From: Myxococcales bacterium
GTDB lineage: Bacteria > Desulfobacterota > Binatia > HRBIN30
Length of the DNA stretch: 64,000 bases
Reading direction: 5' to 3'
Assembly: GCA_037445065.1 (NCBI GenBank)
Contig: JBBILD010000003.1
Span: 32,001-96,000 of the forward strand
The position numbers were made by a program, and so were the translations under genes. Under the pieces are notes generated by a model. That model searched no databases. It was not told the DNA's origin and saw only the letters and a program-made list of their open reading frames with translations. Positions 6,481-63,502 of the stretch are shown here, piece by piece (position 1 is the stretch's first letter; every line of letters begins with the position of its first letter).

Positions 6481-6489
<9 letters not shown>

Positions 6490-6520: not shown

Positions 6521-6537
6521 AGCTTCTCACACCTCGC

Positions 6538-39351: not shown

Positions 39352-40671
39352 GTGCGAGAAGTGCGTTTGGGACTCGCTGGCTTTGGCACGATCGGTACAG
39401 GGGTGGTCAAGTTGCTCGAAGGCTTGGGGCCGGCGCTCGCGAGACGTTTGGGGTTTCGGCTCAAGCTGGCTCAAGTTGCCGACGTGGACCTCAATCGCGA
39501 TCGCGGGGTAGCGGTTCCGCGCGAATTGTTCACCACGGATGCGTTTGCGCTCGTTTCTGACCCGCAGATAGACGTGGTCATTGAGCTGATCGGTGGGTGC
39601 AACGTTGCTCGGCGCCTGGTGCTAGCCGCCCTGCGTGCGGGAAAAAGCGTGGTGACGGCGAACAAGGCCTTGCTTGCGGTCCACGGCCAGGAGATTTTTC
39701 GCTCGGCGGAAGAGAACAAGCTGGACGTCGGCTTCGAGGCCAGCGTTGGGGGTGGGATTCCCATCGTTCGCACTTTGCGCCAGGGGCTGAGCGGCGACCG
39801 CGTGCGCGCCGTGTACGGCATTGTCAACGGCACCTCCAATTACATCCTGACGCAAATGAGCGAACAGGAAGCCGAATTCGAACCCGTGTTACGGCGGGCG
39901 CAGGCGGAGGGCTTAGCGGAGGCAGATCCGAGTTTCGATGTCGACGGCATTGACGCTGCCCACAAGCTGACCCTGCTCATCCAGCTCGCCTTCGGCGTGT
40001 ACGTTCCCTTCGAGCAGATTCCTACCGAGGGTATCCGGCACGTCACACCGTTGGACATTCGTTTTGCACGCGAGCTGGGCTACGTCATAAAGTTGCTTGC
40101 AATCGCCAAACTTCATGGCAGAGAAGTAGAGGCAAGGGTGCATCCCACGATGGTTCCGCGCAAACACGTTCTGGCCGATGTCAAAGGCGCGTACAACGGA
40201 ATTACCGTGGATGGCGAGGCCCTGGGGCAAACCTTTTACTACGGGTTGGGGGCGGGGATGATGCCAACCGCAACTGCTGTGCTCGCCGACGTGATCGAGG
40301 TTGCGCGGAATCGGGTGTACGGCTCGAGTGGTGCTACACCACCCCTTGGTTATCCGATCGGCGAGCAGAAGCGAGCCAGGCTGCGCCCGCTCGAGCGGTG
40401 TGAATCGGAGTTTTACTTGCGCCTGCACGCCGTAGACAGGCCGGGAGTGCTGGGCCAAATCGCGAGCATTCTGGGCCGCCGACAGATCTCGATCGCAGCC
40501 GTGACCCAGCACGGGAACGGCGAAGGCGGGGTGGTGCCGGTGGTGATGCGTACTCATCGTGCACTAGAGCGGAATTTGCGGCTGGCTTTGCGCGAGATCG
40601 CGCGCTTGCGGGTGATCCGGAAGCCGGTCGGCGTGATTCGAATCGAAGAGAGCCTGGGCGGGGCGTCGTGA
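39352..40671 (+). CDS. hom: Homoserine dehydrogenase with ACT domain
   Basis: [34 protein letters not shown]. Confidence 0.96.
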
Positions 40672-43142
40672 TGGGCGCGCAGGCAAAGGGGGCGTGGGCG
40701 GGTGTGCTCCTGGCCGGAGTGCTGCTCGCAGCGCAGGAGAGCCGAGCGATCCCCGCCTGCACAGCCGCCGACGTGATTGCCCAGGAAACGAACTGCGGGC
40801 CGAGCGGGAACTGCATCATCTCGAGAACGTACGAGATCCCGGCCGATCCTCCGTGTACCTTCGACTTTTCAGGCCGCAACGTCACGTTGGCATCTACGGC
40901 GCGCTTCACCGTTGGACCGGGGGAGATGACCCTGTTGGCCGCCAACTTTACGATGTCGGCGGGAGCGCTCATTGATGGGCAAGGGACCGGGGCTTCGGGC
41001 CGCGGAGCCACAGGCGGGCGGATTCGGGTGAATGCAAGCGGCAACTGCGATCTTGGTGGAGCCAGCGGCAGCCGCTCGCGCATAGATGTTTCCTCGAACG
41101 CGGGCGGTGGGCTGATTGACATCCGTTGTGGGGGGAACGCATCGCTCAATGGCCGGCTCAATGCGGACAACCTACGGTCCACTGCAGATGGCGGTACCAT
41201 TGTGGTGGCAGCCGGGGGAAATCTCACTTCGACGTCCTCCCCACAAACGGAGATCACCGCGCGGGGTGGGTCCGCCGCACCGCGCGGCGGCGGTGCCATT
41301 TCGCTCGAGGCGGGAGGAGACATTTCCCTCGCGACGAACACGATCTTAGATGTAACCGGCTCGAGCGCTGGGAGTGTGGACATTAGTGCGGTGCGCAACA
41401 TCTCTATGGGCGGTGTTAGCGGAAACGGGAACGGTGCCGCCGGCAGTGGGGCCACAGTGACCATTTCTGCCGGTTGGGCGGCCACGATCAGCGGCGTCAT
41501 TGTGCTCAATGGAGGGACGGCCGATCCCACTGCGGGTGGCGAGGGGGGGGCGCTGACCATTGAAAGTTTGTTTGGCGACGTCGTCTTGGCTGGTAACGTC
41601 CGTGCCGAGGGGTCTGGGCCGGACGGGGACGGCGGCGAGATTGACATCTCAGCCAACGGCAGTGTGCGGATCAACCAAGGAGTGACTCTGTCCGCGCGCA
41701 GCAACGGCAGCGAGGGTGTGGGTGGCGGTGTGTCTATCTCTGCGACCCTCGACTTGGTTTCTCAAGCACAATCGGCGACCCTCATTGACGTCGCCGGAGG
41801 AGGGGGTGGTGGCGGCCTGGATATCGAGGCGGGTAGGAACGTCACGTTGCTGGGGAAGGTGGATGTCAGCGGTAACGCCGCCGGTGGGGTTGGAGGAGAC
41901 GTTTCGATTTTGGCCGGGGCAGGTGGCTCAGGATCAATGACCGTTGGGGCCAATGTGGACGTCAGTGGAGGTCCGTGTAACTTGGACTTCGGGTGTGGCG
42001 AGGGCGGAACGACCGACCTGAGCGCCTGCGATCTCACGGTGACCTCCGCCGCCACCGTTACCGCCAACGCTCCCGGTGCGGCCGGTGCTCACCAGTTGGA
42101 GGTGCGAAAGCAACTGCGGGTTGATGGGATCGTCACTGCCGTGAAAACCTTGTCTTCGGGGAGCGATGGATCTGTAACGATTGAACACCACGCTTCCTTT
42201 CCACCCGTGCTCGGCACCAATCGAGTTCGCCCTGTGCCGACGTTGAGTCCGAAGCCATTTTGTTCTCCAGACTTGAGCCAAGAGTGCTTGGTCCCCTGTC
42301 CGGTGTGCGGGAACAATGTCGTCGAGTTCCCGGAGACCTGTGACGGCGGCAACACCGCGAGCTGCGACGGCTGCAGCCTGCTTTGCCAAGTGGAAGAGTG
42401 CCCACCGTCTCAATTTTGCCCGGGCAACGTCAACTGCAGCGCTCAGTTGGGTTGCGCGATTTGTCCCGACGCACCCACGCCGACGCCCACGAACACCAGA
42501 ACGCCGACCAGTACGCCGACGCCTTCACCCACCGTCAGTGCGACGCCCACGGAAACGTTGACTGCGACGCCGACTGACACTCCTCCACCCACCGCCACGC
42601 GTTCGCCAAGCCTCACGCCCTCGCAAACCGATACCCCCTCGCCGACCCTGAGTGTTACACCGACGCAGACGGCATCCGCGACGCGGACACCGACACCCAG
42701 CCCCACTGCCTCCGTCACTCCCACGGTGAGTCCGACCTACACGGCTTCGCCCACTCCCTCTTTGTCGCCGACGGCCTCGGCGACGCTGACTTGGACCCCG
42801 ACACCCAGCGCAACGCCTTCGCCAACGGCTTCTCCGAGTGAGACCCGGACCGCCTCGCCGACCCCGAGCCCAACGGCCACGGTTTCTGTGACGCCGACCG
42901 CCTCAACAACATGGACCGCTGAGCCCATGCCCACCGACACTCCGCGAGGGGAAGTGTGTGCGGGGGACTGCGCCGGTGATGGCGAAGTGACCGTGGATGA
43001 GCTGTTGCGCATGGTCAACATTGCCCTCGGGAGCGCCCCGGTAGAGACTTGCTTGGCCGGGGATACGAACGGGGACGGCGAAATTACGATTGATGAGATT
43101 CTGCGCGGGGTCAATTCCGCCCTGTTTGGATGCGCCTCGTGA
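40671..43142 (+). CDS. Secreted protein: Gly-rich beta-solenoid, Myxococcus-type Cys-rich repeat, PT linker, dockerin-like tail
   Basis: Signal peptide; repeated GGxIxIx[19 protein letters not shown]...CDGCS; long P/T/S tract; [16 protein letters not shown]...[13 protein letters not shown]. Confidence 0.85.
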
Positions 43143-43215
43143 GTTTCGACCGAGAACACTGTAGAAGGGCAGGGCCAGTTCGGTTATGGGGAGCTGGTGC
43201 GAGGGAGCGAGGAGC

Positions 43216-44169
43216 ATGGACCGGAACCTGGCACTGGAAGCGGTTCGCGTGACCGAAGCCGCCGCCCTTGCCGCCGCGCGGCTGATGGGGCGGGGCGACG
43301 TTGCGGGGGTGGATCGCGCCGCCGCGGAGGCGATGCGTAAGGCGATTCGCTCGATCGCCATCCGCGGGCGTGTTGCCCTGGGCGAAGGCGAGCCGGGGGT
43401 GGCCGACGTGTTGTACGTCGGTGAAATGGTGGGAAGTGGCGAGGGGCCCGAGATCGACGTGGCGCTCGATGCCCTGGAAGGTGCCTCGATTTGTGCCACC
43501 GGTGGATACAACGCCTTGTCGCTGATTGCTTTCGCGGAGCGCGACGGGTTCTTGCGTTGCCCAGAGACGTACATGGAAAAAATCGTGGTAGGACCCGAGG
43601 GGCGGGAGGTGATCGACCTCGACCGCTCGCCGACCGAGAACCTGAAAGCTCTGGCGGAGGCGAAGGGCGTGTATGTGGCCGACCTAACGGTGGCCATCCT
43701 CGATCGGCCGCGCCATGCCCAGCTCATCGCCGAGGTGCGCAAGGCAGGGGCCCGCATCAAGCTCCTGCCAGACGGAGACGTCGCTGCGGGCATCGCGACC
43801 GTACGGCCGGAAACGGGCATTGATATGCTGCTCGGCATCGGAGGTGCCGCCCAGGGAATCCTCACCGCTGCTGCCATCCGCTGCGCCGGCGGCGGAATGC
43901 AGGCCCGCTTGCGGCCGCGCAATGACGACGAGGCGCGCCGCTGCCGAGCTGCCGGCATCGAAGACCTGAATCGCAAGCTGACTGCCGAAGACATGGCAAG
44001 CGGTAGCGTCATGTTCGCTGCCACTGGGGTCACCAATGGCGATCTGCTGCGCGGAGTGCGCTTTTTCCGCGGTGGGGCGACGACCAACTCTCTGGTCATG
44101 CGCTCGCGCACGCATACCGTTCGCTTCATCGAAGCTACTCATCGCTTCGATTTCAAACCGGAGTACTGA
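43216..44169 (+). CDS. glpX: Class II fructose-1,6-bisphosphatase GlpX homolog with divergent active site
   Basis: RVTEAAA, GEGE, YMEK, DRPRH, DGDV, FAATGVTNGDLLRGV; AGGAG RBS. Confidence 0.85.
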   Translation: MDRNLALEAVRVTEAAALAAARLMGRGDVAGVDRAAAEAMRKAIRSIAIRGRVALGEGEPGVADVLYVGEMVGSGEGPEIDVALDALEGASICATGGYNALSLIAFAERDGFLRCPETYMEKIVVGPEGREVIDLDRSPTENLKALAEAKGVYVADLTVAILDRPRHAQLIAEVRKAGARIKLLPDGDVAAGIATVRPETGIDMLLGIGGAAQGILTAAAIRCAGGGMQARLRPRNDDEARRCRAAGIEDLNRKLTAEDMASGSVMFAATGVTNGDLLRGVRFFRGGATTNSLVMRSRTHTVRFIEATHRFDFKPEY

Positions 44170-44176
44170 GGGCGCT

Positions 44177-44950: not shown

Positions 44951-44966
44951 CAGCGGAGAAGCCGCA

Positions 44967-45191
44967 ATGGAGTGGCGCGAATGTTTCCGGACGCCCAGCG
45001 AAGCGGAGGCCCATCTCGTGCGGGGCTTCCTGGAATCGCGTGGCGTTCCGTGCGTACTGATGAGCAGCCGGTTCAGTGCCCAACCGCTCACCTTCGGGGC
45101 ACTGGGCGAGATCAAAGTCCTGGTGCCGGAAGAGTGGCACGCGAGTGCCCTCGCGATGATCCGGCGCCGCCTGGCAGGAGAAAACGGATGA
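44967..45191 (+). CDS. DUF2007-like small protein
   Basis: [16 protein letters not shown]...IKVLVPE; coupled to the next gene. Confidence 0.75.
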
Positions 45192-46852: not shown

Positions 46853-47399
46853 GCCCGCATTGCGCGCAAAGCAGAGCGCAGGGATTCGGAGCCCCTACGC
46901 CGGGCACCGATTCATCGCTTGCGGTCCACCCCATCCCAAAAGGGCACGCTCTGTGCCGGCCTGAATCCTGCCGGATTCAGGGATCGCCTCGTCTTGCATC
47001 GGCCAACTATCAGCATTGGCGGTGGCTTCGGTAGCCGCTAGGGTGCCTGAACGACCGAACCGCGCTGCAAACAGCGCTCGCCCCGCGTGGTTGACCGCTC
47101 GCAGGTAGAGCGGCCGTTCCGTGGGAACATCCCCAGCCAACCGTGCGCGTTTTGTGTTTCGTCGCACCGACCTGACGCTTGTCCCCCGAGGCGGGTGAGC
47201 CAAGCAACGCTGCCGGATCGCCCTACGAGGCCAGCGTTTACGGCGGTGTAGAGTTTGGGAAGCCACACGGAAGAGGGGAAGAAGTGGGTGCACCGTCCGC
47301 AGTGCGCCGTGCGGCGGCCAGCGGGGAGCTGGGACCACCAGGCGTGGTTTTGGGTCTCGTCTCGGTTACCATCGAGGGTTGGGCGTAGGCCGCTGAGGA

Positions 47400-48170
47400 C
47401 GGCGTTGCGGGAGAGTTCTCGCTGCACTGCAGCCACGTGCCGTCCAGGGAAGTCGTGGCTTCCCGGGATGGGAGGAGCATGGTGATCCCAGTTGCGCTGG
47501 TGCGGGAGCCAAAGCGTGGAGCGGGTTCCCGGGCCCAGGTTTCTGGGTTGGCCCTTCGCCAACGGGAGGTACGCGTATGCGGAGATCGAGCTGGGCCACG
47601 TGGTGCGGGTGGATTTGCGGCGCCCGGACTAGGAATGTCGGGGCGAGGCGTGTGTCGCGACACCCTCCGGGGCAAGGTTGGCTACAGCGGCCGAGGACGA
47701 CAGTTGGGTTCTGAGCACCGTGGACGATGGCGGTAGCGGTATGGGCTGGCTTATCGAGCCCGCAGCTCCGATGCAGTTCGGAGGCTGCGGATTTCCAGGA
47801 GTGGTGAGCCGGGAAGTCGCGGGGGTCTCGCCTCGTAGTTGCTAGCCCAAGGCGCGACCCCCTTCCTCGCCGCACGAATTCTTGGTCGCCAGCGTGGAGG
47901 GGCAGCGCTCGGGCGGGGAGAGCCGGTGGCCTACGCTGCTGGGTTCCTTCGGGCCCATCCCGCGCTTGGTGCCGTCCGCTGTCGGTAGCCGCGGCGTGGA
48001 ACTCCAAGAGTTCGTCTACCTTGGTCCTGCGGAGCTATCTCCGACGGTTCCGGCGGCCAACGGCTGCAACGCGGAGGAAAGCGCGCCTGGCGGCACGTGG
48101 GAGTGGATCGTACTTTTCGTCTTGGTGGCGGCGCGGTGGGGTTGCCCGTGGCACCGGGCTGCGTCTGCCC
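47400..48170 (+). pseudogene. Possible eroded secreted protein ending in a GC-TM-basic tail
   Basis: Fragments GRYAYAEIELGHVVRVDL* and PTVPAANGCNAEESAPGGTWEWIVLFVLVAARW; stops between; boundaries approximate. Confidence 0.3.
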
Positions 48171-48418
48171 TGCGCGCCGTCTCACTTGCCGCCAACTCGG
48201 CCTCGGCGCGGGTGATCGCCAATGACGCCACGCTGCGCATCGACTTCGGTCCCCTGCAACCCGCACCCCAGTCCAACCCCCGGGCGCAGGCTCGTGAGAA
48301 AGCGTTCTCGAACGCGCCATCGCTTCGGGTGTTGACAATTGCGTTGGGAGGTAGAGACCTCTCTTGCTGCAACGGGGTGCCGGCGGCCGGGTGCGCGGCA
48401 GCACGCACGAGGCTTGCG

Positions 48419-49860
48419 ATGACGAGAGCTCGGCAAGATGGAAACGGGCCGCGGCAGGGGCGGTGGGGAGAGAGCGGGGGCGCTGCAGGGCCAAGAAGGG
48501 GGCGCTTTGCCCTGCAGTGCTGTGCGCAAGCGCCGTGCTGGTTGGGACTCCGGCTCGGGCGGGGATGCGGTCGGTCTGGGTTTGCGGGATTCCGCGCAAG
48601 TGGTGGTTCTCGATGGCGACACGAATTCGGTCGTCAGCACAATTTCCCCCCTCACTGCCACGCGCCCTGGCCGCAACCCCGGATGGCCGCCACGTGATGG
48701 TTTTTCTGGGCGACGCTTCCCCCGGGTTGATCCGAACCGAGGCCGACGTACTGGCGGGCACCGTGCTCCTGTCTGGTGGGTCGTGCACCTCCGGCATCAG
48801 TCCGGACTCCGAGTGGGTTTACTTGGCGACGGTAGCCGGTCTCTGCGCGGGGGGCCGGTGTGGTGTGGTGGAGGCCGTGGGCGTAAATAGTCTGCGCGTT
48901 ACCGCCACCGTACCCATTCGGCAGCCGAGCAGCCCTTGCGACCTCGCCGTAACCCCCGATGGTAGCCGCGTCCTGGTCATGCATAAGGACGGGGTTTCCG
49001 TTTCTCCCTCGACACAGCGACCTTAGAGTTCGGTACCCCTTTGGTCCTGCCGTGCTGCCCGATCTGTTTTATCCGCGCCAACGCCGATGGCGCCCGCTTC
49101 CAGATCGGGTACGGGGACGTGTGGGTCTCCGGTTTCCACGGTCGCGATGTAAACACGCTGGTGTGCCGAGATGTGATCCGTTCGAAGGCGGAGCTGGCTA
49201 CTTGTCCATCTCCCCGGACGGAACGCGGGTGTACCTTCCGGTTCTGCTTCCGCGGACATGCCAAGTACGGTTGCTGGCCTTCGACATAGCGCGAGGGTCC
49301 ATCGCTGGCGTTCTGGGTCTGCCCATGGAAACGCCGGGTGTGAGCGCCGCTAGCATTCTCGCCTTGAGCCCCGAGGGAGCCCGCGCGTATGTGCAGTCCG
49401 TGGGGCCGTCTAACCTGCTGGTCATCAACACCGTTTCCAACCGTATCGCGGCCAGCTTGCTTCTCTTGGTGGGCCGCTTCGTCTTGAGCAGCGACTCGAG
49501 GCGTGCCCACGCGGCCGGCCCCGATTCCCTTCTTCGCCATCGATACGGCGTCGAACGAGGTCGCGACTGCACTCCCGCTCTCGGTTGGGGGCATGGCGCT
49601 GGTTGACTCCACGGCTCCGCCAAGTGCGAGTCCAACGCAGACGTCGACGCGGACGGTTACCCCCTACGATCGCCGTGACGGGCACCTCGACCCCGCCGCC
49701 GCCCGCAACGCACACACTGGCTGTCGGGCGGGGATGTTCGGGCGGCTACTCGGTGCTGCCCGATCCCCCCAACGCGCTCGCGCCGTTTCTCTACTACGGC
49801 TTTGTAGTGATCGTAGCCGGGCGTTGCCGGCCCTGGGTAAGGAGGCAGGCGCAGGTCGAG
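48419..49860 (+). pseudogene. Frameshifted YVTN/YncE-type beta-propeller surface protein with PT linker and C-terminal TM tail
   Basis: Repeats VVVLDGDTNSVV, LAATPDGRHV, LAVTPDGSRV, LSISPDGTRVY, LSPEGARAYV and AIDTASNEVA spread over several + frames. Confidence 0.75.
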
Positions 49861-50433
49861 GCTGCGCCGGCGGGAGCAGTTGGTTGCGCCTTTTGGGGCT
49901 TCGGACCTTTCTTGTCCTGCGCGCCGACGGGCCGGCGCTGGCCCAGGAACCGGTTACGGTTCTTGCCGATTCCGTTTTCCTGCTGAGGACCACTCTCACG
50001 GGAGCCCACGCCGATTCGGAAGGGATCTCGACGTTGCGTAGCAGCCAGGTGCCGTGCACCGCACACCCCCCCTCACGGTGGAGCAGTCCGTGGTGCTCGC
50101 GCTCGAACCGTAGGCTCCCTGCGCCCCTGCCATTACGCAGTACCGAATCGATGAGGCTCTCATTGTCCCGATGCCTTCCTAGAGCACGAGACGGTTTCGG
50201 GGCTCGGTGATTGGATACCCGGTTTCAATCGGCTAGCTGGCAGCAGAACCGGAGACAGTGAGTGGCGCGGCAAGCACTGGCGGAGCCGCCTACCTCATTC
50301 GGCCGCACGAAGGATCGATGGGACCGGGCGGCCACGTCATCGATAGCGCGCCGCTGCCGGCAGAGAACACGGGTCCGCCCCTGTCGCTGCCGGAGAATGC
50401 GTTCAATGCGCCACCAATCTTCCCGCCTGCGGT

Positions 50434-52025
50434 GTGAGTGCAATCGGTAACTGCCCGAGCGGCACGGCACGCCTGGGCAGGCTCCGGGCGGAACTCGCCC
50501 TCGCTGTCACTGGTGGCTTCACGGCGCAGTTTCCGCCCTCGACAGACCGCCGCGAAGTGATTGAGGTCGTCTGCTGTGCTGTTGACGCTGTTTCGGAAAT
50601 CTCTACGCGCGAGGTTGATGCGGAGTTCCTGGTCAAGTCCGTTCAGATCTGGACGATGAACGCCACCGTGCTGCCACCCAGCGGCCGGCAATACACGGCG
50701 CAGGACTTTCAGGACCACTGGCGGCCGAGTGTGGGAAAAGCCAGCGCGATGCCGTCTTCGGCTTTTGGCCCGGTGGGTCGAGCGGGGCGCACGTGAACGT
50801 TACGGGTCTGGGGGTTCCCGGTGCCTTGCCGGGAGACGCGGACACGGCGGTGGAGTTGGCGGGAGCAGATGACTTCGTGGCTATCCGCAGGACGTTCGCT
50901 TTGTTGCAATTGTCGGGTTCGTTCTCGATCGAGCTGTGGGTGAAGCTGACCGCCACCTCCCAGTCCGACAAGTACCTGCTCAACAAGGGCAACCACTACG
51001 CCGTGCTGTACGGGTAGGTGCTGAATGCTGGAGTTGTCTGCCGGCGAGGGCACGTTCACCGGTAGCGACCCGCGCCCGTACCGCGCCATTCCGGCGGAGG
51101 ACACATCTCGGCATCACATCGTCTACGCGTACGATTAATGAGAACAGGGACTGTTTTAGCGGTACAAGGATTGCCCGCCGGTCGAGCCCACTCCTGCTGC
51201 GCTGCGCTTTTCCCTGGGAAGCACGAGCGAGGATTTGATCCTGGGTGGGGCTGGTCCGGGCTAGCTCAACAACGTCCATGCAGTACTGGATGAGGTGGCC
51301 GTGTGTCAGCGCTGAGTGCGAGCGAGGTGCGGGTGCGCTACCGGGCCAAGCGTTGCGGCGGCTGTGGCGAGTCGCAGCCTTGCTCGAGGGTCGGTCGGTT
51401 GCCGGTGGGTGATGCGTAAGTGGAGTCCATCCGCAACAAAGCGAACTTCGGTACCGACACCGACCTGCACGTTGGCACTTCGGCGACCGCGAAGGGACAG
51501 CCTGAGCCGAACAAGCACCGCGCACTGCCTGCTTTTGGCCTTGCCCAGACCTTGCCGAGTGGGGCCTCCGTCGTGGAGGCGTGGCTGCACCTTTCTCTCT
51601 CCGCGCTGTTTGTCGGCTCGGACTTGCCGGGATTCGCGGTGTATCGGAACGAGCAGGACTTTGCGGAGGCGCTAGTCACGTGGAGCAACCAGCCTCCCGC
51701 CAGCTCGGTGCCGGCACCGGTGGCGCGGCTAATCCAGCCCGCCGCGGCAGGATGAACGGCGCTGGAAGTCACCAGCCTCGTTGCCGACTGCTGGCAGCTC
51801 CGCTCTGGCCAGTGCTCCTGGCAGGTGCGCTGGCTGAACGAGGTGGACGACGTCAGCGCGGGGATGTGGCTGGCGAGCCGCGAAGCCCCAGGCGCGGGCC
51901 AGCGCCCGTACCTGGAAGTCTTCTATCGGCTGCCGAGCGCATTGGTCTGGCAAGTCACGGGGGTGCCTCGGAGGCTCGGCGAAGTCGGTGCGAGGCCTGG
52001 AATGCGCCAGGAGGTGAAGCCGTGA
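50434..52025 (+). pseudogene. Eroded modular secreted protein: M12-peptidase-like fragment, LamG domain, DNRLRE(CBM96)-like domain
   Basis: AVSEISTREVDAEFLVKSVQIWT; FSIELWVK, HHIVYAYD*, LDEVAV; DA*VES..NFG, VTWSNQP, SREA...RPYLEVFY; internal stops and frameshifts. Confidence 0.7.
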
Positions 52026-52690
52026 AGGGGCGAGAGGGTCTTCCTGATGCGGGCTGTTACATTGCTGCGCTGTGCACGGGTGGGGCTGGTTCCCGCATCG
52101 CGCATGCTGGGAGTGGCGACCGATGGGGCGTGCGGGAGGTGATCGCCGGAGACGAAGCCGAGCTGGTCCCCTTGATGCGCGCGTGTGTGGAAGGCGAGCA
52201 GGCGTTCCACGGGCGCTGCAATGGCGCTGTGTGGGACCTGGCTTGGGCTGAGTCGGTGGTCACCGCACGCAAGCGCTAGCTCGTGCTGAGCCTCGATGGC
52301 CACATCGTGGGCTTTTTCGATTTGCCGGGGCGGGTACCTGAACCGTTCGGAGAGCCGATTGTGGATCGTTACGCCTGCTCGTTCTGGTGCGCGGCGGTCG
52401 GCGTGCGTCTGGACCAACTGGGAAAAGAGTTGGCCGTTCGCGCGTTTTGGTACCGCGCGTATCACGCCTTCCTGGCCGCGCCTGCGCGCGGGTACGAGTA
52501 TCTGGGGGCGAGCGTGCCGTGGGACCAGCACCCGTATCTGCCCAAGCCGTTTGCCGAGTACGCGAGCGTCGTTGCGTGCAAACCGATGGTAGACGGCGAG
52601 GGCAACGGGCGGTTTTTGCTCAAATGCAAGCTTACCCAGGCTCTCGAAACTCTCGTGAGCGAGGGAGCCAGTTCGCCCCTGCCTTCTTGA
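52022..52690 (+). pseudogene. Possible GNAT-like gene interrupted by one in-frame TAG (52277-52279)
   Basis: AGGAGGT RBS then GTG 52022; VREVIAGDEAELVPLM...ARKR*LVLSLDGHIVGF continues in the same frame. Confidence 0.45.
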
Positions 52691-53200
52691 GTCCGGCCAG
52701 GCGGCCGGGCCGGCTGCGGCGGGGCCAAGCACCGCGGGCGGTGCGGCTGCGCGATGGAGGCGTGAGGCGCAGCCCATTCGTTGCTGGTGTTGCGCACCCG
52801 GGCGCCCGGCAGAACTTGCTGCGTACTGCCGCCCGAAATGGGCCTGTTCTGCAGCGCACGACTTGGGGGTTGGCTCTCGGCGCGCGCCCTACAGATCATG
52901 GAAGCGCGCGGTCACATCCAGGATTGCCGAGAAGAAGTTTCGGTCCTTGCGGCAGGCTTCGCTGCGGAGCCTCGGCGACGAGCGGCCTCAGTGACAAGAG
53001 CCTTAGGCCGAGCGCAAGCCCGGCTGAGGACGGTCGCTCTGCCTCGCGTTTCGGTCGCGGGCGAGAAAACGGTCTTTCGAGAAGGGCGGGACGGGTCTCA
53101 CCAAGGGTAAGGCCTCGCCGGTCTCCGCTCACAGCCGGGCGGTGGGGGTGCGATCCGGCAACTTGCGCGGTGGGGAGGCCAGCAGTAGGGAAGGTAGTTC

Positions 53201-53608
53201 ATGAACCAACGGCGGCTGCGGATTTTGGTGGCCAAACCGGGGCTCGACGGCCATGATCGGGGCGCAAAAATCATCGCGCGGGCACTGCGCGATGCAGGCT
53301 TCGAGGTCATTTACACCGGCTTGCACCAGACTCCGGAAATGATCGTCGAGACGGCGATCCAGGAAGACGTGGATGCGATTGGGCTGAGCATTTTGTCCGG
53401 CGCGCATATGACGTTGTTCCCGGACGTACTGCGCTTGCTGGCGGAAAAGGGCGTCGAGGACATCCCAGTGTTCGGCGGCGGGATCATCCCTCCAGAAGAT
53501 GCACGCGAACTCAAGGCCTTGGGAGTGCGCGAGATCTTCACACCCGGTGCCTCGATTCAAGAAATCGTGGACTGGGTGAGAACGCATCTACGGCCGCGCA
53601 GCGAGTGA
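53201..53608 (+). CDS. Acyl-CoA mutase small (cobalamin-binding) subunit
   Basis: [12 protein letters not shown] (DxHxxG), [15 protein letters not shown]. Confidence 0.95.
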
Positions 53609-53620
53609 CAAGAGCAGGCG

Positions 53621-54829: not shown

Positions 54830-54860
54830 GCGGACAACCGAACGGGAAGGAGGATTCTGC

Positions 54861-56656: not shown

Positions 56657-56894
56657 TCTGCGAGGTCTCCGTGCTCGGCATCCCGGGGACGTGGCTCGTG
56701 AACGGAAAGCCGCGCCCTGGCTTGGATCGGAACCTGGTTCTGGGAACTTGCGGGCGCGGCGATGGTTCCGGCGCGCGCTCGCATGTGCGGCCGTCGGGGC
56801 AAGCGCCAGCGGGCATGGGTTCCGGAGCGTAGTTTGCACGTTGACTTGCCCCGCGCACTGGAGCATGCGGTGAGGTGCCCGGAGAGGGGGAACG

Positions 56895-58592
56895 ATGGTG
56901 GACAGGTGGGCTGACTGGCGGCTCGGTGCAGCCTGCCTCATCGTGTTTGCTCCCCGTCTCGCGCTCGCTTTTTCCAGTGGGATTACCGGTCTCACGACGA
57001 GTCCCGCAGGGTGTAACCAATGCCACTCGGGTGGGCAGGTGCCGGCCGTCACGTTGAGCGGGCCGACCACGGTGACACCCGGGTCCACGAACGAGTACGT
57101 GCTCGAGATCGCCCCAGTCGGTTCGCAGATTTGGGGTGGTCTCAACGCCGGTGCGAGCGCCGGCACCCTCTCGGTGGGTGGCGCCCATTCTTCCGGCACC
57201 AAGCTTTTGAATGGCGAGATCACGCACACGCAGCGCAAGGGCGGCGACGGGAATCCGATCCGCTTTTCGTTTTTGTGGACAGCGCCGACCACGGGCGGGG
57301 CGTTCGCTCTGCGGGCCTGGGGGAATGCAGTCAATGGCAATGGAGCAAATTCCGGCGACCGCGCCGCGTTCGCAAGCCTGAACGTGAATACAGGACCGAC
57401 TGCCCCGCCGACCGCAACCGTGACCCTCACGCCGACACCAAGCCCCACGAGTACCCGGACGCCGACCGCAACCCAGACCCTCCGCCCAACCTCCACCCCA
57501 ACGCCAACCGGAACCCTCACCGCAACGCCTTCTGCCAGTCCCACCCCGAGTGCAAGCCGGACGCCGAGCGCAACGCCGTCGCCGAGCGATACGCCGTCTC
57601 CGCTTCCGACAGTCACTGCTAGCCCAACGCCTTCGTCAACCAGCACCGGGACGGCAACGCCGAGCGTGTCGTTGACTCCGACGCGGACTGGGACGGCAAC
57701 GGCCAGTGCGTCTGTGACCTTTTCGCCGACCCGGTCTCCCTCGCCGAGTTCGACCGCGACGTTGTTGGCGAGCGCGACACCGACGCCGCGGGCTTCGGCC
57801 ACCGCGACGGACTCGGCGACCCCCAGCCGCTCTCCCACCCCGACCCCGAGCGTGTCGCCGAGTGCGAGTCCTTCGGCGACTCGCACGGCGACGGCCACGT
57901 TGCTCCCTACCGCAACCGCGTCGGCAAGCCGCACTGCCACGGCGCCAGCAAGCGCAACGCCTTCTGCCAGTCCCACCCCGAGTGCAAGCCGGACGCCGAG
58001 CGCAACGCCGTCGCCGAGCGATACGCCGTCTCCGCTTCCTACACTCATTGCTAGCCCAACGCCTTCGTTCACCAGCACCGGGACGGCAACGCCGAGCGTG
58101 TCGTTGACTCCGACGCGGACTGGGACGGCAACGGCCAGTGCGTCTGTGACCTTTTCACCGACCCGGTCTCCCTCGCCGACCTCGACCTTGTCGGCGAGCG
58201 CGACACCCACGCCGTCGGCGTCGGCCACCGCGACGGACTCGGCGACCCCGAGCCGCTCTCCCACCCCGACCCCGAGCGTGTCGCCGAGTGCGAGTCCTTC
58301 GGCGACTCGCACGGCGACGGCCACGTTGCTCCCTACCGCAACCCCTTCGCCAAGCCGCACTGCTACGGCCACCGCCACCGCCACCCGGAGTCCGCGGAGT
58401 TCGGCTTGTCCCGGCGATTGTGGCGGCGACGGAGAAGTTACCGTGGACGAGTTAGTGGTGCTGGTCAACATTGCGCTCGGAAGCATGCCGGTGGAAGCGT
58501 GTTTGGCCGGCGACACGAATGAAGACGGTGACATCACGATCGAGGAAATTCTGCGTGGGGTGAACGCTTCTCTGTTCGGATGCGGCACCTGA
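56895..58592 (+). CDS. Secreted protein: CxxCH Reeler/choice-of-anchor-V-like domain, very long T/S/P stalk, dockerin-like tail
   Basis: Signal peptide [56 protein letters not shown]...GDTNEDGDITIEE. Confidence 0.88.
   Translation: MVDRWADWRLGAACLIVFAPRLALAFSSGITGLTTSPAGCNQCHSGGQVPAVTLSGPTTVTPGSTNEYVLEIAPVGSQIWGGLNAGASAGTLSVGGAHSSGTKLLNGEITHTQRKGGDGNPIRFSFLWTAPTTGGAFALRAWGNAVNGNGANSGDRAAFASLNVNTGPTAPPTATVTLTPTPSPTSTRTPTATQTLRPTSTPTPTGTLTATPSASPTPSASRTPSATPSPSDTPSPLPTVTASPTPSSTSTGTATPSVSLTPTRTGTATASASVTFSPTRSPSPSSTATLLASATPTPRASATATDSATPSRSPTPTPSVSPSASPSATRTATATLLPTATASASRTATAPASATPSASPTPSASRTPSATPSPSDTPSPLPTLIASPTPSFTSTGTATPSVSLTPTRTGTATASASVTFSPTRSPSPTSTLSASATPTPSASATATDSATPSRSPTPTPSVSPSASPSATRTATATLLPTATPSPSRTATATATATRSPRSSACPGDCGGDGEVTVDELVVLVNIALGSMPVEACLAGDTNEDGDITIEEILRGVNASLFGCGT
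57521..58370 (+). repeat. Near-identical tandem duplication (432-bp period) within the T/S/P stalk
   Basis: CGCAACGCCTTCTGCCAGTCCCACCCCGAG begins at both 57521 and 57953; the second copy has a 6-bp in-frame deletion. Confidence 0.92.
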
Positions 58593-59185
58593 GGTGAATG
58601 GTGAGGACGTCCCCGGGGGCATGTGAGCCACTCTGGGATGAAGCGGAAGCGGCAGCCGTGGCCAAGCCCCAGCGCACTGGGCAAGCCGGCGGTTCATCGG
58701 TGGAGTTAGAGTCGCGCAGCGACTTTCGTGACTTGAGGTAGTGCAGGACGTGCAGCGAGTGGTGGTACACCGCCGTGCAAGGTGGAGACCTCGAAGCGCT
58801 TCAGGGCAGCGTTGGCGCCGGTACGGGTTGCGGTTTGCGGGCAGGAAAAACGGCTGTCGCTCTCGCGTGTTGCTTCGTTGGGCGCCCGATGGAGGGCCGT
58901 ACCGTCCGTGCACGCAGTCGTTAACTGACTTGCGAAGATCCGCGTGGTGAGCCCGTATTCTCGCGCGTCATGCGCAGCGGCGCACGAGCTACGAGCCGGC
59001 TACGCAGTCTATTTGCGTTTTACTCTGCCTACCTTGGGCTGGCAGCCGCTCCGACGACCCAGCGCTCGCGTTCAGACAGGGCATACCCACGTCGTTGCGT
59101 GCCAGCGCAAGCTCGCAGATGCGGACAGGTTTGTTGACTCATCCAGTCCACGAGTGCAGACTCGGTCCGCGGGAGGGTTCTGGCC

Positions 59186-60598
59186 ATGGCGCGCAAACAG
59201 CTTTCATGGTTAACGGGGGCGACTCTGGTGCTGCTCGTCGGTTCCCGTACGGTCTTTGCCTTTTCGACGGGGATCACCGGTCTGACCACGAGTTCCACGG
59301 GTTGTAACCAGTGCCATTCGGGCGGACAGGTTCCAGCCGTGACCTTGAGCGGGCCGACCAATGTCGCGCCCGGATCCACGAACGAGTACACGTTAGAGAT
59401 CACGCCCGTGGGCACGCAGATTTGGGGCGGTCTCGACGCCGGTGCGAGCGGTGGCACCCTATCTGTCGGTGGCTCGAATTCTGCTTCGACGCAGCTCCTG
59501 AGCGGCGAGATCACGCATACGCAGCGCAAAGGGGGAGACGGAAACCCGATTCGTTTCTCCTTTCTGTGGACGGCACCAGCGGTGGGAGGAGTGTTCACGC
59601 TGCGCGCGTGGGGCAACGCGGTCAATGGGAACGGAGCGAATTCCGGCGACCGCGCCGCGTTCGCAAGTTTGAGTGTGAACGCCGGTCCGACCGCCACGCC
59701 GACCGTTACTGCAACCGCGACCGCTTCGCCCACACCGACTCCACCGGCGCACGACGCGCTTGTGCAGCCCTTGGCCCCGCGTACGATCAAGATTCCCAAA
59801 ACGGCTCCGGTGGGAGTGACCAAGAAGTTTGCGCTCAAGGTGCGGAACGCCGATCCGAGTGGCGTCCCAGCGCAAACGATTGCCTTGTCATTACTGTCCA
59901 CGACTTGCCCGTCAGGGGTGACCTTCACGGCTCCCGATTTCGACGGCAAGACCGCCGGCGAGCAAAGTCAGATTCTGCTCAACCCCGGACAAGGGAAGGC
60001 CGCAGTGGTCTCGGTGAGTGTATCGCACGCCGACATCAGCTCGCTTTTGCCCACGCTGCCCTTCCGCTGCTCCGCCACGTACCGGGCTGACGTGGTGCTG
60101 AGTGGGAACACGGACCCATCCCCGAACAACAACGAATTTCCATTGGAACTCAACTTCATTGACCTCGCCGATGCAGCCCAGCCAGCACCCGACGAGGCAT
60201 GGCTCAAGCGCGCTCCGCACGCTCGCGCCAACATCCCGTCTGGCGTGCTCACGCAAACCGTCCGTCGCACGATTCAAGTCGCCAACGCCGACACCGTGCC
60301 TCATACTCTCGGTCTAGCCGTGGACGCATCTGCGTGCCCTTGGGTGTCGGTGCTCAGCATTGACTTCGATCCCAAGACTCCGAGCATCGAGCCCAACCTG
60401 CTGGTGGCCCCCGGAAAAACCGGGAAGGCGCTGGTGCAGTTGGTCGCAGATGGGTCCATGATCTCCACTTCGAACAGCAGGGCGCCGCAGCGCTGTGTGC
60501 TCACTGCGACCGTACAAGGCCCGGCCAGTCCGGATCCGGAGCCCAGTAACGACAGTAGCAAGTTCGTACTGGATGTGATTGACAAGAACGACTTGTAG
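59186..60598 (+). CDS. Secreted protein: CxxCH Reeler/choice-of-anchor-V-like domain, short PT linker, two ~140-aa two-Cys domains
   Basis: N-domain near-identical to that of 56895..58592; C-terminal units ending DPSPNNN and DPEPSND; GGAGG RBS. Confidence 0.88.
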   Translation: MARKQLSWLTGATLVLLVGSRTVFAFSTGITGLTTSSTGCNQCHSGGQVPAVTLSGPTNVAPGSTNEYTLEITPVGTQIWGGLDAGASGGTLSVGGSNSASTQLLSGEITHTQRKGGDGNPIRFSFLWTAPAVGGVFTLRAWGNAVNGNGANSGDRAAFASLSVNAGPTATPTVTATATASPTPTPPAHDALVQPLAPRTIKIPKTAPVGVTKKFALKVRNADPSGVPAQTIALSLLSTTCPSGVTFTAPDFDGKTAGEQSQILLNPGQGKAAVVSVSVSHADISSLLPTLPFRCSATYRADVVLSGNTDPSPNNNEFPLELNFIDLADAAQPAPDEAWLKRAPHARANIPSGVLTQTVRRTIQVANADTVPHTLGLAVDASACPWVSVLSIDFDPKTPSIEPNLLVAPGKTGKALVQLVADGSMISTSNSRAPQRCVLTATVQGPASPDPEPSNDSSKFVLDVIDKNDL

Positions 60599-60613
60599 AG
60601 TGCATTATGTGCC

Positions 60614-63502
60614 ATGACGTATTTTCTCGTCATGGCACTTGCACTCGTAGCGCTGGCAGAGCGGGTTCGTGCCGTTTGCTCGGCTTCGGAAATGGTTGGG
60701 ACCGAACCAAGCTGTACGGCGCCTGTTTGCCGAATCCGGGGCACCTACACAATCGAAGACCAGTGCTTGCTGGACTTCTCGTTCGCGGATGTAGTGTTGG
60801 AAGCCGGTGCGCGCTGGAATGTGGGGGCGCGGTCGGCCACTGTGCTCGCTCGCAGCTTCACGGTGCGTGCGGGTGCATTCGTGGATGCACGGGGCCTCGC
60901 GACGCAGGGCCCGGGGACGCGCGGCGGCACGCTGGAACTACGGGTTGGGGGGCCCGTGTTGCTCGAGGCGGGCAGCACACGGGGGCGGATCGACGCCTCT
61001 GCCACCCAGCATGCTGGGCAGATCCGCATTAGCGCGGCGGGGCCGCTCCGGATCGCGGGCCGCCTACTGGCCGCAAACCTCACCAACGGCGCCTCGGGCG
61101 GGCGGATCGAACTGGTAAGTTCGGACGCGGTGATCGTCGACAGCTCGGCCGAAATGGACTTTTCGGGCGGCCTCTCCGCCCCCGGGGGTGGAGGATCGCT
61201 CTCCATCCGGGCGGGAGCCGATGTCACCTTGGGTGCACCGCTGGCGGGCAACGGCTCGAACGGCGGGACTGTGCAGATCGAAGCCGGAGGGAAGGTTGCA
61301 GTGGGCACGGTCCTGCTGAGTGGGACGGGCGATGCGGGCAGTGGTGGAACGTTGGCGATCCGTGCCTTTCGCGACGTCGCACTGCTCGGCCCGGTGCGCC
61401 TGCAGGGAAGCACGCGCCTGCTGACAGACGGTGGGGATGGCGGAGCGCTGTCTGTCGAAAGCCGCTACGGCTCGGTGCAGGTCGGCGCCACTCTCTCGGC
61501 CGAGGGAGCCGAACCCAACGGCTTTGGCGGATCCATTCAGATCCTCGCTGCTGGTTCACTTACGTTTGCCAAAGGCACGACGGTTTCGATGCGTGCCAAC
61601 GGCTCCCTCGGTGCGGGCGGAACACTGCAGGCCTGGGCAGGTCAGCAGATCGTGCAACTGAGTGCTGTTGACGCCAGCGGGGGGGCTGAAGGCGGACAAG
61701 TGGGGTTGGAGGCACTGGGAGATCTCGTGCTTGCCGGCACGATGGACGTGCGCGGACGGGGCGAAGGAGCTGTGGGCGGCGAAGCAGGACTGCTGGCAGG
61801 GGGCTCGACCGAGGGAGCTTGGGCGCAGGGGGACCTGCGCATCTCGGGCACAGTTGATGTGTCTGGCGGGACGTGCGGGACTTCCGGTTGTGGTGCTGGA
61901 GGTTCGTTTTCGGCAACAGGATGTTCCGTATCGTTGGAAGGAACGGGCCGCGTGCTAGCGCGCGGTGGTGGGGAAGGGGGAGTTCTGACCATGACCGCGC
62001 GCTCCTCGCTCGGCGTGCAAGGGACTCTACTCGCCACCCCTAGCACGAGCGGGGGTCGGCCGGGTGTCATCCACTTCCAGGTACTGAACGGAATCGCCCC
62101 GGTGGTGAGTGGAAATGCGCTGCCGCTCCCGGTGATCACCGCGAGCCCCCCATGCACGCCTGAAACGATCGCCGGCTGTGTCATGCCGTGCCCACGCTGC
62201 GGCGACGGCCGCACGGACTACCCCGAAGAGTGCGACGATGGGAACCAGGCGTCGTGCGACGGCTGCTCCGCGCACTGCCAGCAAGAGGATTGCGCGCCTG
62301 CGGCATGGTGTGTTCCCTGCGAGGCATCCCTGGGCTGCCCTCCAGAGCCCGAGCCGCGGTGTGCGCCGCCGCCCAGCGCCACGCCGACGCCGACCGCGCG
62401 GCCGAGCGCGACGTCCACGCCGACTGCGCGGTCTAGCGCGACGGCCACCCGCGCAGTGCCAGCCGCGACGTTGACCGCAACGGAGACACCGAGAGTCGTG
62501 CCGACTGCAAGCCCGACGCCGACACCGCTCGTCAGCGGATCGGTTGCGACGCTGCCGACCCGGAGTCCCACACGAACGTGGTCGCCCACTGCCGGCCTAC
62601 AGCCTTCTCCGACGCTGCCGCCGACTGCTACAGCGAGCCCTACCTCGACCCCACGGTCACGGCACGACCTAATGTTGTTCCCGCCGCGCCCGGTGGTCTT
62701 GCGCTTGGCCCCCGGCGCTGCGCTGGTGCACAAACCGTTACCAGTGCGGGTGCGCAACATTGCCAGCGACAGCGACGTTGCGGTACCTGTGCGTGTGGTT
62801 GCGACCAGCAACTGTCCCACCGGCTCGGTCCCCGAGGCGGTAGCGTTCGACCCCGGGGGCGAAGGGAACCCGAGTGTCGCTCTCGTTCCCCCTGGGAAGT
62901 CTCGTCAAGGGTTGCTCGAAATCGAAGCCCGTGCCGAGGCGTTTACCTCGACGGGGCCGCTTTCCCCCCAGCGCTGTCGGATCGAGCTGGTGGCTGAGGT
63001 CGCGTTGCCGGGTAACCAAGACCCGACACCGGACAACAACCGGGCGTTTGTGGAAGTGGACGTGGTAGACGCGGGCGACGGGTGGCTCAGCAGGGTCCAC
63101 CAAACGGCCATCGTCGCAGCACACCCGAAGGTGATTCGGCTCCAGCCTGGTCACGATTTCGCGGAGGCTCGCTTACGACTCGGGCTGCGGAACGGGGACC
63201 GCAACGATCGGGACGGACACGCGGTGCGCCTGCTGGGCAGCGACGGGACTTGCCCGGCGGGCACGATCGGCCCGCCGTTGCTCCGACCGCGGCCGGATTT
63301 GCTGCCTGGAGCGGTGTGGGTGCGCAGTGCGGGCACGCGCGGCCTCTCGGTGCCGGTTCGTTATCGGAGAGCTGACATCCCGCTGGCCGCACCTGGTCGG
63401 CGTTACCGCTGCTTTCTGTCGTTCGAAGCAATTGGCCCTGCCGGGGACCGCGATCCGAGCAACAACACCACCGTGCTTACCCTCGACATGGTGGTCCGCT
63501 GA
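60614..63502 (+). CDS. Secreted protein: Gly-rich beta-solenoid, Cys-rich repeat, PT linker, two ~140-aa two-Cys domains
   Basis: N-region colinear with 40671..43142; CGDGRTDYPEECDDGN; C-terminal units ending DPTPDNN and DRDPSNN. Confidence 0.86.
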   Translation: MTYFLVMALALVALAERVRAVCSASEMVGTEPSCTAPVCRIRGTYTIEDQCLLDFSFADVVLEAGARWNVGARSATVLARSFTVRAGAFVDARGLATQGPGTRGGTLELRVGGPVLLEAGSTRGRIDASATQHAGQIRISAAGPLRIAGRLLAANLTNGASGGRIELVSSDAVIVDSSAEMDFSGGLSAPGGGGSLSIRAGADVTLGAPLAGNGSNGGTVQIEAGGKVAVGTVLLSGTGDAGSGGTLAIRAFRDVALLGPVRLQGSTRLLTDGGDGGALSVESRYGSVQVGATLSAEGAEPNGFGGSIQILAAGSLTFAKGTTVSMRANGSLGAGGTLQAWAGQQIVQLSAVDASGGAEGGQVGLEALGDLVLAGTMDVRGRGEGAVGGEAGLLAGGSTEGAWAQGDLRISGTVDVSGGTCGTSGCGAGGSFSATGCSVSLEGTGRVLARGGGEGGVLTMTARSSLGVQGTLLATPSTSGGRPGVIHFQVLNGIAPVVSGNALPLPVITASPPCTPETIAGCVMPCPRCGDGRTDYPEECDDGNQASCDGCSAHCQQEDCAPAAWCVPCEASLGCPPEPEPRCAPPPSATPTPTARPSATSTPTARSSATATRAVPAATLTATETPRVVPTASPTPTPLVSGSVATLPTRSPTRTWSPTAGLQPSPTLPPTATASPTSTPRSRHDLMLFPPRPVVLRLAPGAALVHKPLPVRVRNIASDSDVAVPVRVVATSNCPTGSVPEAVAFDPGGEGNPSVALVPPGKSRQGLLEIEARAEAFTSTGPLSPQRCRIELVAEVALPGNQDPTPDNNRAFVEVDVVDAGDGWLSRVHQTAIVAAHPKVIRLQPGHDFAEARLRLGLRNGDRNDRDGHAVRLLGSDGTCPAGTIGPPLLRPRPDLLPGAVWVRSAGTRGLSVPVRYRRADIPLAAPGRRYRCFLSFEAIGPAGDRDPSNNTTVLTLDMVVR

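Follow-up and report, generated by a model that had tools for sequence, protein, structure and literature searches.

Two cargoes on two tails: a dockerin-like module and an unannotated tandem Ig-like module in exported proteins of a Binatia genome

The window analysed here, a stretch of 64,000 nucleotides, carries on its plus strand four genes in which two cargoes, A and B, are each joined to two tails, X and Y. Gene AX (40671..43142) encodes a signal peptide, recognised by eye, followed by cargo A (40734..42470), a linker rich in Pro, Thr and Ser (P/T/S; 42465..42935) and module X (42957..43133), a dockerin-like domain with two putative calcium-loop repeats and four invariant cysteines. BX (56895..58592) consists of a signal peptide, cargo B (56967..57389), a long P/T/S linker (57390..58403) with an internal duplication of 423 nt, 94% identical, and X (58407..58583). 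In BY (59186..60598), a signal peptide and cargo B (59258..59680) are connected by a short linker to a tandem Y module (59750..60592), whose two units (59750-60172 and 60191-60592) are predicted Ig-like beta-sandwiches with one Cys pair each. AY (60614..63502) starts 15 nt downstream of the end of BY and combines a signal peptide, cargo A (60659..62353) and a linker with tandem Y (62663..63496; units 62663-63079 and 63098-63496).

A sequence-only reading of this locus had proposed a complete two-by-two matrix of cargoes and tails, and the four open reading frames indeed share them in this way. In BLASTP comparisons among the four proteins, cargo A of AX (residues 22-600) matches that of AY (16-580) with 36.6% identity over 584 columns (E=1e-54), and residues 1-165 of BX and BY, which include cargo B, are 75.8% identical. 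The X modules of AX and BX share 79.7% over 59 residues, and the Y modules of BY (189-467) and AY (684-962) share 25.4% over 303 columns (E=1e-14), while neither diagonal pair, AX/BY or BX/AY, matched at E≤0.01. Every cargo match stops at the start of a P/T/S run (residues 599-755 in AX, 166-503 in BX, 167-191 in BY and 579-684 in AY), so the switch between cargo and tail falls within the linker, as had been suggested. A contig of sequencing run X2 bridges the two genes at 58374-59325, leading from X at the end of BX to the first part of BY, and run X9, from a different study, contributes contigs covering 56807-57047 and 58360-58619; the gene order is, therefore, no assembly artefact. Misassembly of BX in particular was considered and rejected, given that the two B copies are 77% and the two X copies 74% identical in DNA and that BX is also present in other runs.

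The cysteine-rich repeat described for cargo A passes the TIGR02232 (DUF4215) cut-off of 20.8 bits with 26.1 and 32.3 bits, and is present in both A proteins. The label 'beta-solenoid' for this cargo is at most tentative: its Gly-rich repeats were recognised by eye, and an ESM Atlas search was uninformative, with a best score of 0.81. By profile score, cargo B is assigned to the NCBIfam choice-of-anchor V domain (NF041895; 124.5 bits in BX and 124.7 in BY, cut-off 42). It scores below the cut-off of the MXAN_6652 family (NF041894; 104-107 vs 200 bits), which NCBIfam describes as MYXO-CTERM-anchored. Both cysteines and the histidine of its CxxCH motif are invariant in 28 out of 28 B domains. 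The label 'Reeler-like' could not be upheld for this cargo, as Reeler was among neither the eight Pfam families matched by these 28 domains nor their nine PDB matches.

The matrix is composed of three older genes (AX, BY and AY) and a young chimera, BX. AX is an old gene, located between hom and glpX in all seven of the best-scoring relatives; the tree available for cargo A is a quick one. BX arose recently and locally as a chimera, with B copied from BY and X from AX. It is missing at the corresponding site in the related genomes G023 and G041, and its B domain is 85% identical to that of BY, compared to 71% to the G041 ortholog, with the two local copies being sisters in the tree (support 97/94). 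The two local X modules agree at 47 of 59 positions, whereas that of AX agrees with its own orthologs at 35-39 of 59, and in a comparison of 820 pairs no X was closer to that of AX than the one in BX.

Beyond the window, X was found on 56 ORFs of the genome (58 matches, of which 26 are C-terminal, 21 near the N-terminus and 11 internal) and Y on six. A third cargo family, matrixin, also occurs with X and with Y in the same genome, which makes a full matrix less surprising. With three cargo families bearing both, the proposal that the two tails can be exchanged on common cargoes is supported. Furthermore, A and B bear additional tails in relatives, so that the matrix is not closed at two by two, and other tails, T and Z, swap between cargoes likewise. 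The matrix thus represents a minor part of the tail swapping seen throughout the genome. The idea that low-complexity linkers act as shuffling joints fits the four window genes, but it does not hold generally for Y: only 30 out of 118 Y proteins have an upstream 30-residue stretch of which at least half is P/T/S.

Module X consists of two repeats, spaced 32 residues apart, each a 12-residue calcium loop with a helix after it, an architecture predicted from sequence. Among 27 sequences, Asp occupies position 1 of both loops in all 27, and Glu occupies position 12 in 26. The X of AX scores 21.5 bits against Pfam Dockerin_1, below the cut-off of 22.9, and the sole variant above it (L017) reaches 24.5 bits. 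Dockerin_1 was matched by 19 out of 27 X sequences at E≤0.1, whereas EF-hand models matched all 27 with higher scores, and a PDB search with the X profile retrieved mostly calmodulin-like chains. These scores, together with the Glu at loop position 12, would suit a module that makes no use of cohesin and instead binds calcium in an EF-hand-like way or associates with itself. We regard this alternative as improbable, since each loop of X is preceded by Gly-Asp and lacks an entering helix, the repeat spacing is 32 residues, X shares its distribution and gene clusters with cohesin, and X replaces a lipid anchor in some proteins.

The evidence for this last point comes from 30 orthologs of a decaheme cytochrome: X alone is present in 10 of them and a lipobox alone in 17, while three have neither and none has both. 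X and the lipoprotein anchor never occur together in this set, which supports the earlier view of X as an anchor-like module, standing in for a lipoprotein signal. The lipobox pattern was likewise absent from all 56 X ORFs; the pattern, here and for the other proteins considered, is an ad hoc regular expression, which missed two likely signals (L301 and L304). Among the cargoes tagged with X are both di-heme and multiheme cytochromes, along with many propellers. The system also looks non-cellulolytic, as had been supposed, given that no glycoside hydrolase match was obtained in 54/56 X ORFs scanned (Pfam; in part at E≤1e-5).

The genome encodes cohesins of its own, with 16 matches on 12 ORFs. 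One of these proteins (C11:104185-106497) has three cohesins, scoring above the Pfam cut-off, and a lipobox pattern, while another (C21:55272-56924) has two cohesins and a MYXO-CTERM; MYXO-CTERM passes its own cut-off on two cohesin-bearing ORFs. The genome thus contains both a cohesin, as expected alongside a dockerin-like tag, and an anchored multi-cohesin scaffoldin, as expected of a cellulosome-like complex. In the PDB, the genome's cohesin profiles retrieved scaffoldin chains first (E=2e-7 and 3e-8). Two X genes lie immediately upstream of a three-cohesin gene in G023, and the same arrangement is found on contig C11 of G000. X is also carried by three of the 12 cohesin ORFs, and some X-cohesin pairs could, therefore, close on themselves. 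A complex prediction of X with a cohesin from C11 and two calcium ions scored 0.20, against a mark of 0.32, with controls not folded, and weighs neither for nor against binding. GspD and two Rce1-like proteases are encoded in the genome as well.

Across the sampled genomes, cohesins track X and Y does not. X was present with at least 10 matches in all 25 genomes sampled within the order and in only nine out of 175 genomes outside it, with one or two matches each; cohesin-like domains were detected in 25/25 and 5/175, respectively. Since these 25 genomes are essentially one clade, the co-occurrence of X and cohesin amounts to about one event rather than 25. Y was found in 14 of the 25 and in 41 of the 175, was restricted to one class among the genomes sampled, and is represented by a single gene in many genomes.

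These distributions bear on the proposal that X recognises Y, in the manner of dockerin and cohesin, and so brings the A and B proteins together in one complex. In its favour are the three shared cargo families, the position of BX directly upstream of BY-AY, the beta-sandwich of cohesin size formed by Y and the occurrence of Y in 36 out of 52 genomes in the order rich in X. Nevertheless, Y was absent at E≤1e-4 from five out of five X-rich genomes that are 98-100% complete (all or nearly all candidates scored). X was present in only two of the 41 Y-bearing genomes outside the order, and five of the latter, rescored in full, gave no X match better than 1.3e-4. Y always bears cargo or stands alone, and by the lipobox test it lacks a membrane anchor: the pattern was absent from all six Y ORFs of the genome and from each of 78 Y proteins in the library whose start is intact. 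When aligned to the genome's cohesin profile, Y obtained an hhalign probability of 0.45%, and no Cohesin match was found on any of the six Y proteins, while true cohesins exist elsewhere in the genome. We, thus, consider an X/Y pair very improbable, and the role of cohesin-like partner, earlier suggested as one option for Y, is not sustained; the likely partner of X, judging from homology and distribution, is a cohesin.

Modelling of tandem Y gave a confident structure (pLDDT 96, pTM 0.90), a beta-sandwich with 8-9 strand elements per unit, whereas a single-sequence fold lacking the first 16 residues reached a pLDDT of 39.6. Its structural neighbours are Ig-like sandwiches, with a best Z of 9.8, a value that indicates a common fold and says nothing on function; Z was at most 6.7 for cadherins and 6.8 for a CARDB-like archaeal domain. 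Cohesin was absent among the best 50 fold-search matches and the Foldseek matches listed, although such absence does not exclude the fold. A PDB sequence search with the Y profile returned nothing (best E=0.46), and Pfam and NCBIfam, including CARDB, DUF11 and CHDL, gave no match on the window's Y. Y, a pair of Ig-like sandwiches by its model, is without annotation, restricted to one class, and constitutes a previously undescribed tail family.

The position of Y was assessed in the best 150 of 400 proteins by score, a set biased toward tandem pairs. Y is C-terminal in 147 of them and N-terminal in three, and it is attached to 37 cargo clusters. Its units end in conserved Asp/Asn motifs, the last three residues being NDF, NDL or NDY in 82 of the 150. 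Such a terminal position and ending, along with the confinement to one class, could be expected if Y, rather than binding a surface, were a signal at the C-terminus by which a secretion machine recognises proteins for export or targeting, as in type IX secretion, where the C-terminal domain is Ig-like. However, the end motif recurs at the end of the first unit in 79 out of 149 cases, and thus looks structural, while AY ends without it. Moreover, the three N-terminal cases, the occurrence of Y in giant proteins and alone behind a signal peptide (P0072, P0091 and L227), and the many genomes with a single Y gene all fit poorly with a dedicated signal, which we find quite improbable. Alternatively, Y could be an ordinary accessory Ig-like domain (a spacer, a stabiliser or a binder of substrates or foreign surfaces), with its anchor-like appearance arising from free shuffling of terminal domains. 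This fits with the commonness of the fold, the similar swapping of T and Z, and the nearest ESM Atlas clusters of Y, which are DUF11/CARDB proteins (0.89-0.90, to be taken as a lead only); a DUF11 match was found in only 2 out of 81 whole Y proteins. Set against this are the strong conservation of Y across unrelated cargoes, the six-residue gap between its units, fixed in 106 out of 149, and the presence of X in just one of the best 150 Y proteins, and we consider the accessory role unlikely. No conserved neighbour gene pointing to a Y receptor emerged from 20 loci, and a related-locus search with a single Y protein yielded two weak, partial matches and a single full one, the latter on a possibly misbinned contig labelled Enterobacteriaceae, so that it offered no guide to taxonomy.

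Altogether, we consider it rather probable that the tails are parallel, with X a dockerin-like tag for anchored cohesin scaffoldins and Y a separate surface-retention module. Many proteins would be exported with a plain signal peptide and then retained at the cell surface or matrix via one of several portable tails, which recombination would exchange among cargoes. X would be a disulfide-stapled tag with calcium-binding loops that most likely binds the cohesins of scaffoldins anchored by a lipoprotein signal or MYXO-CTERM, together forming a non-cellulolytic cohesin-dockerin display system. Y would most likely keep its cargo in place through non-covalent and probably calcium-dependent binding to a ligand at the surface or in the matrix, in a RapA-like manner. 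If X binds cohesin and Y acts independently, as proposed, the two are parallel addresses and not a pair. More tentatively, they may belong to a multi-address surface code of this class, in which cohesin-dockerin contacts would place proteases, propellers and even an MtrC-like decaheme cytochrome on anchored scaffoldins, the last amounting to a redox complex built by dockerins. In this scheme Y would serve as the tag for another, undescribed docking system that has a separate receptor or polymer, and a tail swap like that in BX would redirect a protein from one system to the other.

If the favoured reading of parallel tails is correct, cohesin-dockerin contacts serve an entire order of uncultured diderms as a general means of displaying non-carbohydrate proteins at the surface, with X standing in for the lipid anchor on an electron-transfer cytochrome. 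Y, as a well-folded, unannotated tail family, is a testable candidate surface-retention module, and BX would be a tail swap caught soon after its occurrence. In the open literature, most subscription journals being outside its scope, no report was found that joins Binatia or Binatota with dockerin or cohesin, and the main text of a Binatota survey (PMC8262859) makes no mention of them.

Choice-of-anchor domains occur with alternative anchors. In this genome and its relatives, cargo B passes the choice-of-anchor V cut-off but bears X, tandem Y, T or other tails. Regarding MYXO-CTERM sorting by myxosortase and type II secretion (PMC11980579), MYXO-CTERM tails and GspD are present here, the two Rce1-like proteases are at most candidate myxosortases, and the four window proteins lack MYXO-CTERM. 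Y shares with CARDB/DUF11 domains a C-terminal Asp/Asn motif and a language-model likeness, though the window's Y has no Pfam match. Its layout is analogous to that of the Ra-CHDL of Rhizobium RapA and Ply, a calcium-dependent tandem beta-sandwich, alone in RapA and a C-terminal enzyme tail in Ply, that binds the bacterium's own polysaccharide (PMC5061743). No sequence link to RapA was found, and Y differs in having a Cys pair and in its export, which would follow a signal peptide of the Sec type and not the type I secretion used by Raps. Non-cellulosomal cohesin-dockerin systems include the planctosome (PMC6461901), the Ca. Stygibacter complex (PMC8542988) and the amylosome and mucinolysome (PMC12997984), two of these being genome-only predictions in diderm bacteria. 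As in those accounts, dockerin-type tags occur here on secreted proteins other than cellulases, and multi-cohesin scaffoldins have their own surface anchor. In contrast to them, the tag has four invariant cysteines and lies at either end of proteins on 56 ORFs, the cargoes include multiheme and di-heme cytochromes and propellers, the scaffoldins bear a lipobox or MYXO-CTERM, and several non-dockerin tails operate in parallel. The display of X proteins, as predicted from these sequences, would, thus, represent a new form of non-cellulosomal cohesin-dockerin display.

The four genes, named by cargo and then by tail, lie on the + strand at 40671-43142 (AX), 56895-58592 (BX), 59186-60598 (BY) and 60614-63502 (AY). 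Pairwise comparison confirmed that the ORFs are real and form the two-by-two matrix described in the sequence-only reading. Cargo A is common to AX and AY (36.6% over 584 columns), cargo B to BX and BY (75.8% over 165), the dockerin-like module X to AX and BX (79.7% over 59) and the tandem Ig-like module Y to BY and AY (25.4% over 303). AX/BY and BX/AY, the diagonal pairs, showed no match in the comparison among the four proteins. The shared cargo stops in each case at the onset of a Pro/Thr/Ser run, placing the switch within that linker as proposed, and a hydrophobic N-terminal stretch in all four proteins reads as a putative signal peptide. BX and the BX-BY junction were present in contigs of other sequencing runs. 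The BX linker contains a 423-nt tandem duplication (57521-58369), where one contig, in runs X5 and X6, contains a junction that steps back by 414 bases.

Cargo B scored above the cut-off of the NCBIfam family choice-of-anchor V (NF041895); its likeness to a second family, whose description gives MYXO-CTERM as the anchor, stayed below cut-off. All 28 of the B domains aligned keep the CxxCH motif; the Reeler-like label found no backing among profile and PDB matches. The Cys-rich repeat of cargo A exceeded the TIGR02232 cut-off, and its Gly-rich part matched no family.

The matrix widens beyond two by two in relatives. Among 33 rows of cargo A, the tail was X in 12, Y-Y in 9, another in 9 and cut off in 3, and among 32 rows of cargo B it was X in 7, Y-Y in 6, another in 18 and cut off in 1, some rows being one gene counted twice. 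X and Y exchange in three cargo families, and within the genome X also exchanges with MYXO-CTERM-type tails and with a further tail, T (3 of the 7 such labels being below cut-off or assigned by pattern). Pro/Thr/Ser linkers, once proposed as shuffling joints, are no general feature of Y proteins (30 of 118). T, of ~170 aa, accounts for many of the 'other' A and B rows in relatives; the genome itself has it on 4 ORFs, with FG-GAP and trypsin cargoes. It had no Pfam or NCBIfam match on the proteins scanned. T-related loci are C10:107881-111962, C2:131296-133326 and C6:175301-176320 in the genome, and L184-L208 in the library. Another unannotated domain, W (~190 aa), occurs as 16 copies on 11 ORFs of the genome (e.g. 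C20:47858-49333 and C9:5224-6777), some on lipoproteins and one together with X.

AX is located between hom and glpX in all seven closest relatives. Downstream of a btuF-like gene, the relative G023 carries AY only, the relative G041 BY-AY, and the genome under study BX-BY-AY. The B domain of BX is 85% identical to that of BY versus 71% to the G041 ortholog, and the tree places the BX and BY domains as sisters (97/94). Of the 820 pairs among 41 equal-length X domains, that of AX with BX is the most similar (73% DNA and 80% protein identity; means 57% and 53%), 17 weaker or different-length matches being left out. Since its B is closest to that of BY and its X to that of AX, BX is a chimera assembled recently from local parts; the breakpoints presumably lie somewhere in the linkers. 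A broken cargo B copy in another relative (G092:C23:416353-416514; 83% identical over 54 residues) may represent a decaying gene. Elsewhere in the window, ~6.3 kb of fragmented ORFs (46853-53200), with propeller-like pieces by eye at 47882-49606 and a CBM96 piece at 51420-51755, are probably decayed secreted-protein genes; they separate two methylmalonyl-CoA mutase genes that are adjacent in G023 and G041. Positions 1518-9075 hold ordinary genes for glycosyltransferase 20, an alpha-amylase/maltokinase-type fusion and an H+-pyrophosphatase.

An iterated profile found 58 X matches on 56 ORFs of the genome, a few of them weak or partial: 26 C-terminal, 21 near the N-terminus and 11 internal. The module combines two calcium-type loops 32 residues apart with four invariant Cys. 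We call it dockerin-like, rather than a filed member, because EF-hand models outscore Dockerin_1 and the dockerin cut-off is mostly missed. Among the 54 of these 56 ORFs that were scanned with Pfam, none matched a glycoside hydrolase, in line with the suggested non-cellulolytic system; cargoes included proteases (trypsin, M28, matrixin), propellers (FG-GAP, NHL, BNR), a di-heme peroxidase, cytochrome P460 and an MtrC/MtrF-like protein. In one scan, 25 of 45 X ORFs had no match at E<=1e-5.

The MtrC/MtrF-like protein, with ten CxxCH motifs, carries X right behind its signal peptide; of 52 genomes from the order, 33 have it. Loci were fetched for 30 of its 34 matches. Among these orthologs, 10 had X without a lipobox, 17 a lipobox without X, 3 neither and none both, a direct comparative test that supports X as an anchor. 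The gene itself (L246, C7:151986-154454) heads a cluster with ORFs of 7, 4, 18 and 6 CxxCH motifs.

Cohesins, the likely partner of X, gave 16 matches on 12 ORFs of the genome. Three Pfam cohesins (89.5 bits versus 24.1) and a lipobox pattern occur together in one protein, and two cohesin-bearing ORFs end in a MYXO-CTERM above cut-off. Profiles of these domains retrieved cellulosomal scaffoldin chains as first matches. In G023, two X genes lie directly upstream of a gene whose product has three cohesins between a signal peptide and a MYXO-CTERM-like tail (18.5 bits, cut-off 20); its counterpart in the genome runs off contig C11 and, from an identical repeat sequence, seems to continue on C22. 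A single cohesin-like ORF (C11:103704-104339) directly follows the three-cohesin lipoprotein, as in G156 and G023.

Module Y comprises 11 units on 6 ORFs of the genome and 400 library representatives. Among the best 150 of these, it is C-terminal in 147, spans 37 cargo clusters and occurs with X in one. The predicted model (81-sequence alignment; pLDDT 96, pTM 0.90) has two beta-sandwiches. Structure comparison placed Ig-like folds closest to it, with a Vpr domain at the top (Z 9.8, rmsd 2.8, 108 aligned), then Calx-beta (Z 9.0, 8.9) and a pilus chaperone (8.7); cadherins scored up to 6.7. No catalytic family was found for Y. A Cys pair and Asp/Asn motifs kept in each unit suggest a disulfide and bound calcium. 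Some proteins consist of a signal peptide and Y with no cargo, and some large proteins carry Y N-terminally, which fits a self-contained binding module. Near-N-terminal tandem Y occurs in L031, L147 and L223 (2300-2500 aa), in L031 alongside a teneurin TTR-like domain; L210-L215, L225 and L226 are conserved secreted proteins of 380-400 aa from two other families, with a single C-terminal Y. Evidence for Y as an anchor is weaker than for X, and consists of its swaps with X and the lack of a lipobox in its proteins (0 of 6 in the genome, 0 of 78 in the library).

Distribution was assessed in 200 genomes of the class, 25 in the order and 175 outside, scoring a limited number of candidates. X matched in 25/25 genomes of the order (at least 10 matches each, the count being capped at 31) and 9/175 outside, the cohesin-like profile in 25/25 and 5/175, Pfam Cohesin in 22/25 and 12/175, and Y in 14/25 and 41/175; only 2 of these 41 had an X match. 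Because of this limit, five X-rich genomes were rescored for Y, which gave nothing at E<=1e-4; rescoring of five Y genomes for X gave a partial best match at 1.3e-4. Y was present in 36 of 52 genomes of the order and in none of 100 other genomes of a phylum-wide sample. Related genomes are not independent, and the co-occurrence of X and cohesin is close to one event; the X/Y split recurs in several families. Of the two forms in which X and Y had been proposed as interchangeable attachment modules, that of alternative addresses is supported, given the X/lipobox exclusion and the swaps, and that of a mutually binding pair is unlikely, given their unlinked distributions and the lack of profile likeness between Y and the genome's cohesins. 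The best overall explanation, which we favour with some reservation, would be display of X proteins through cohesins, with Y as a parallel, independent surface tail.

Y is an unannotated family of common fold. Its domain layout is like that of RapA and the Ply glycanases of Rhizobium, which bind the cell's own polysaccharide (PMC5061743); the likeness is one of analogy only. Sorting of MYXO-CTERM proteins via type II secretion has been shown in Myxococcus (PMC11980579), and GspD is present here. A literature search, supplements excluded, found no paper on such a cohesin-dockerin system in the host's class. Cohesin-dockerin complexes other than cellulosomes have been described or proposed for Planctomycetes (PMC6461901), Cloacimonadota (PMC8542988) and gut Firmicutes (PMC12997984), and the X system is a variant of this already known kind.
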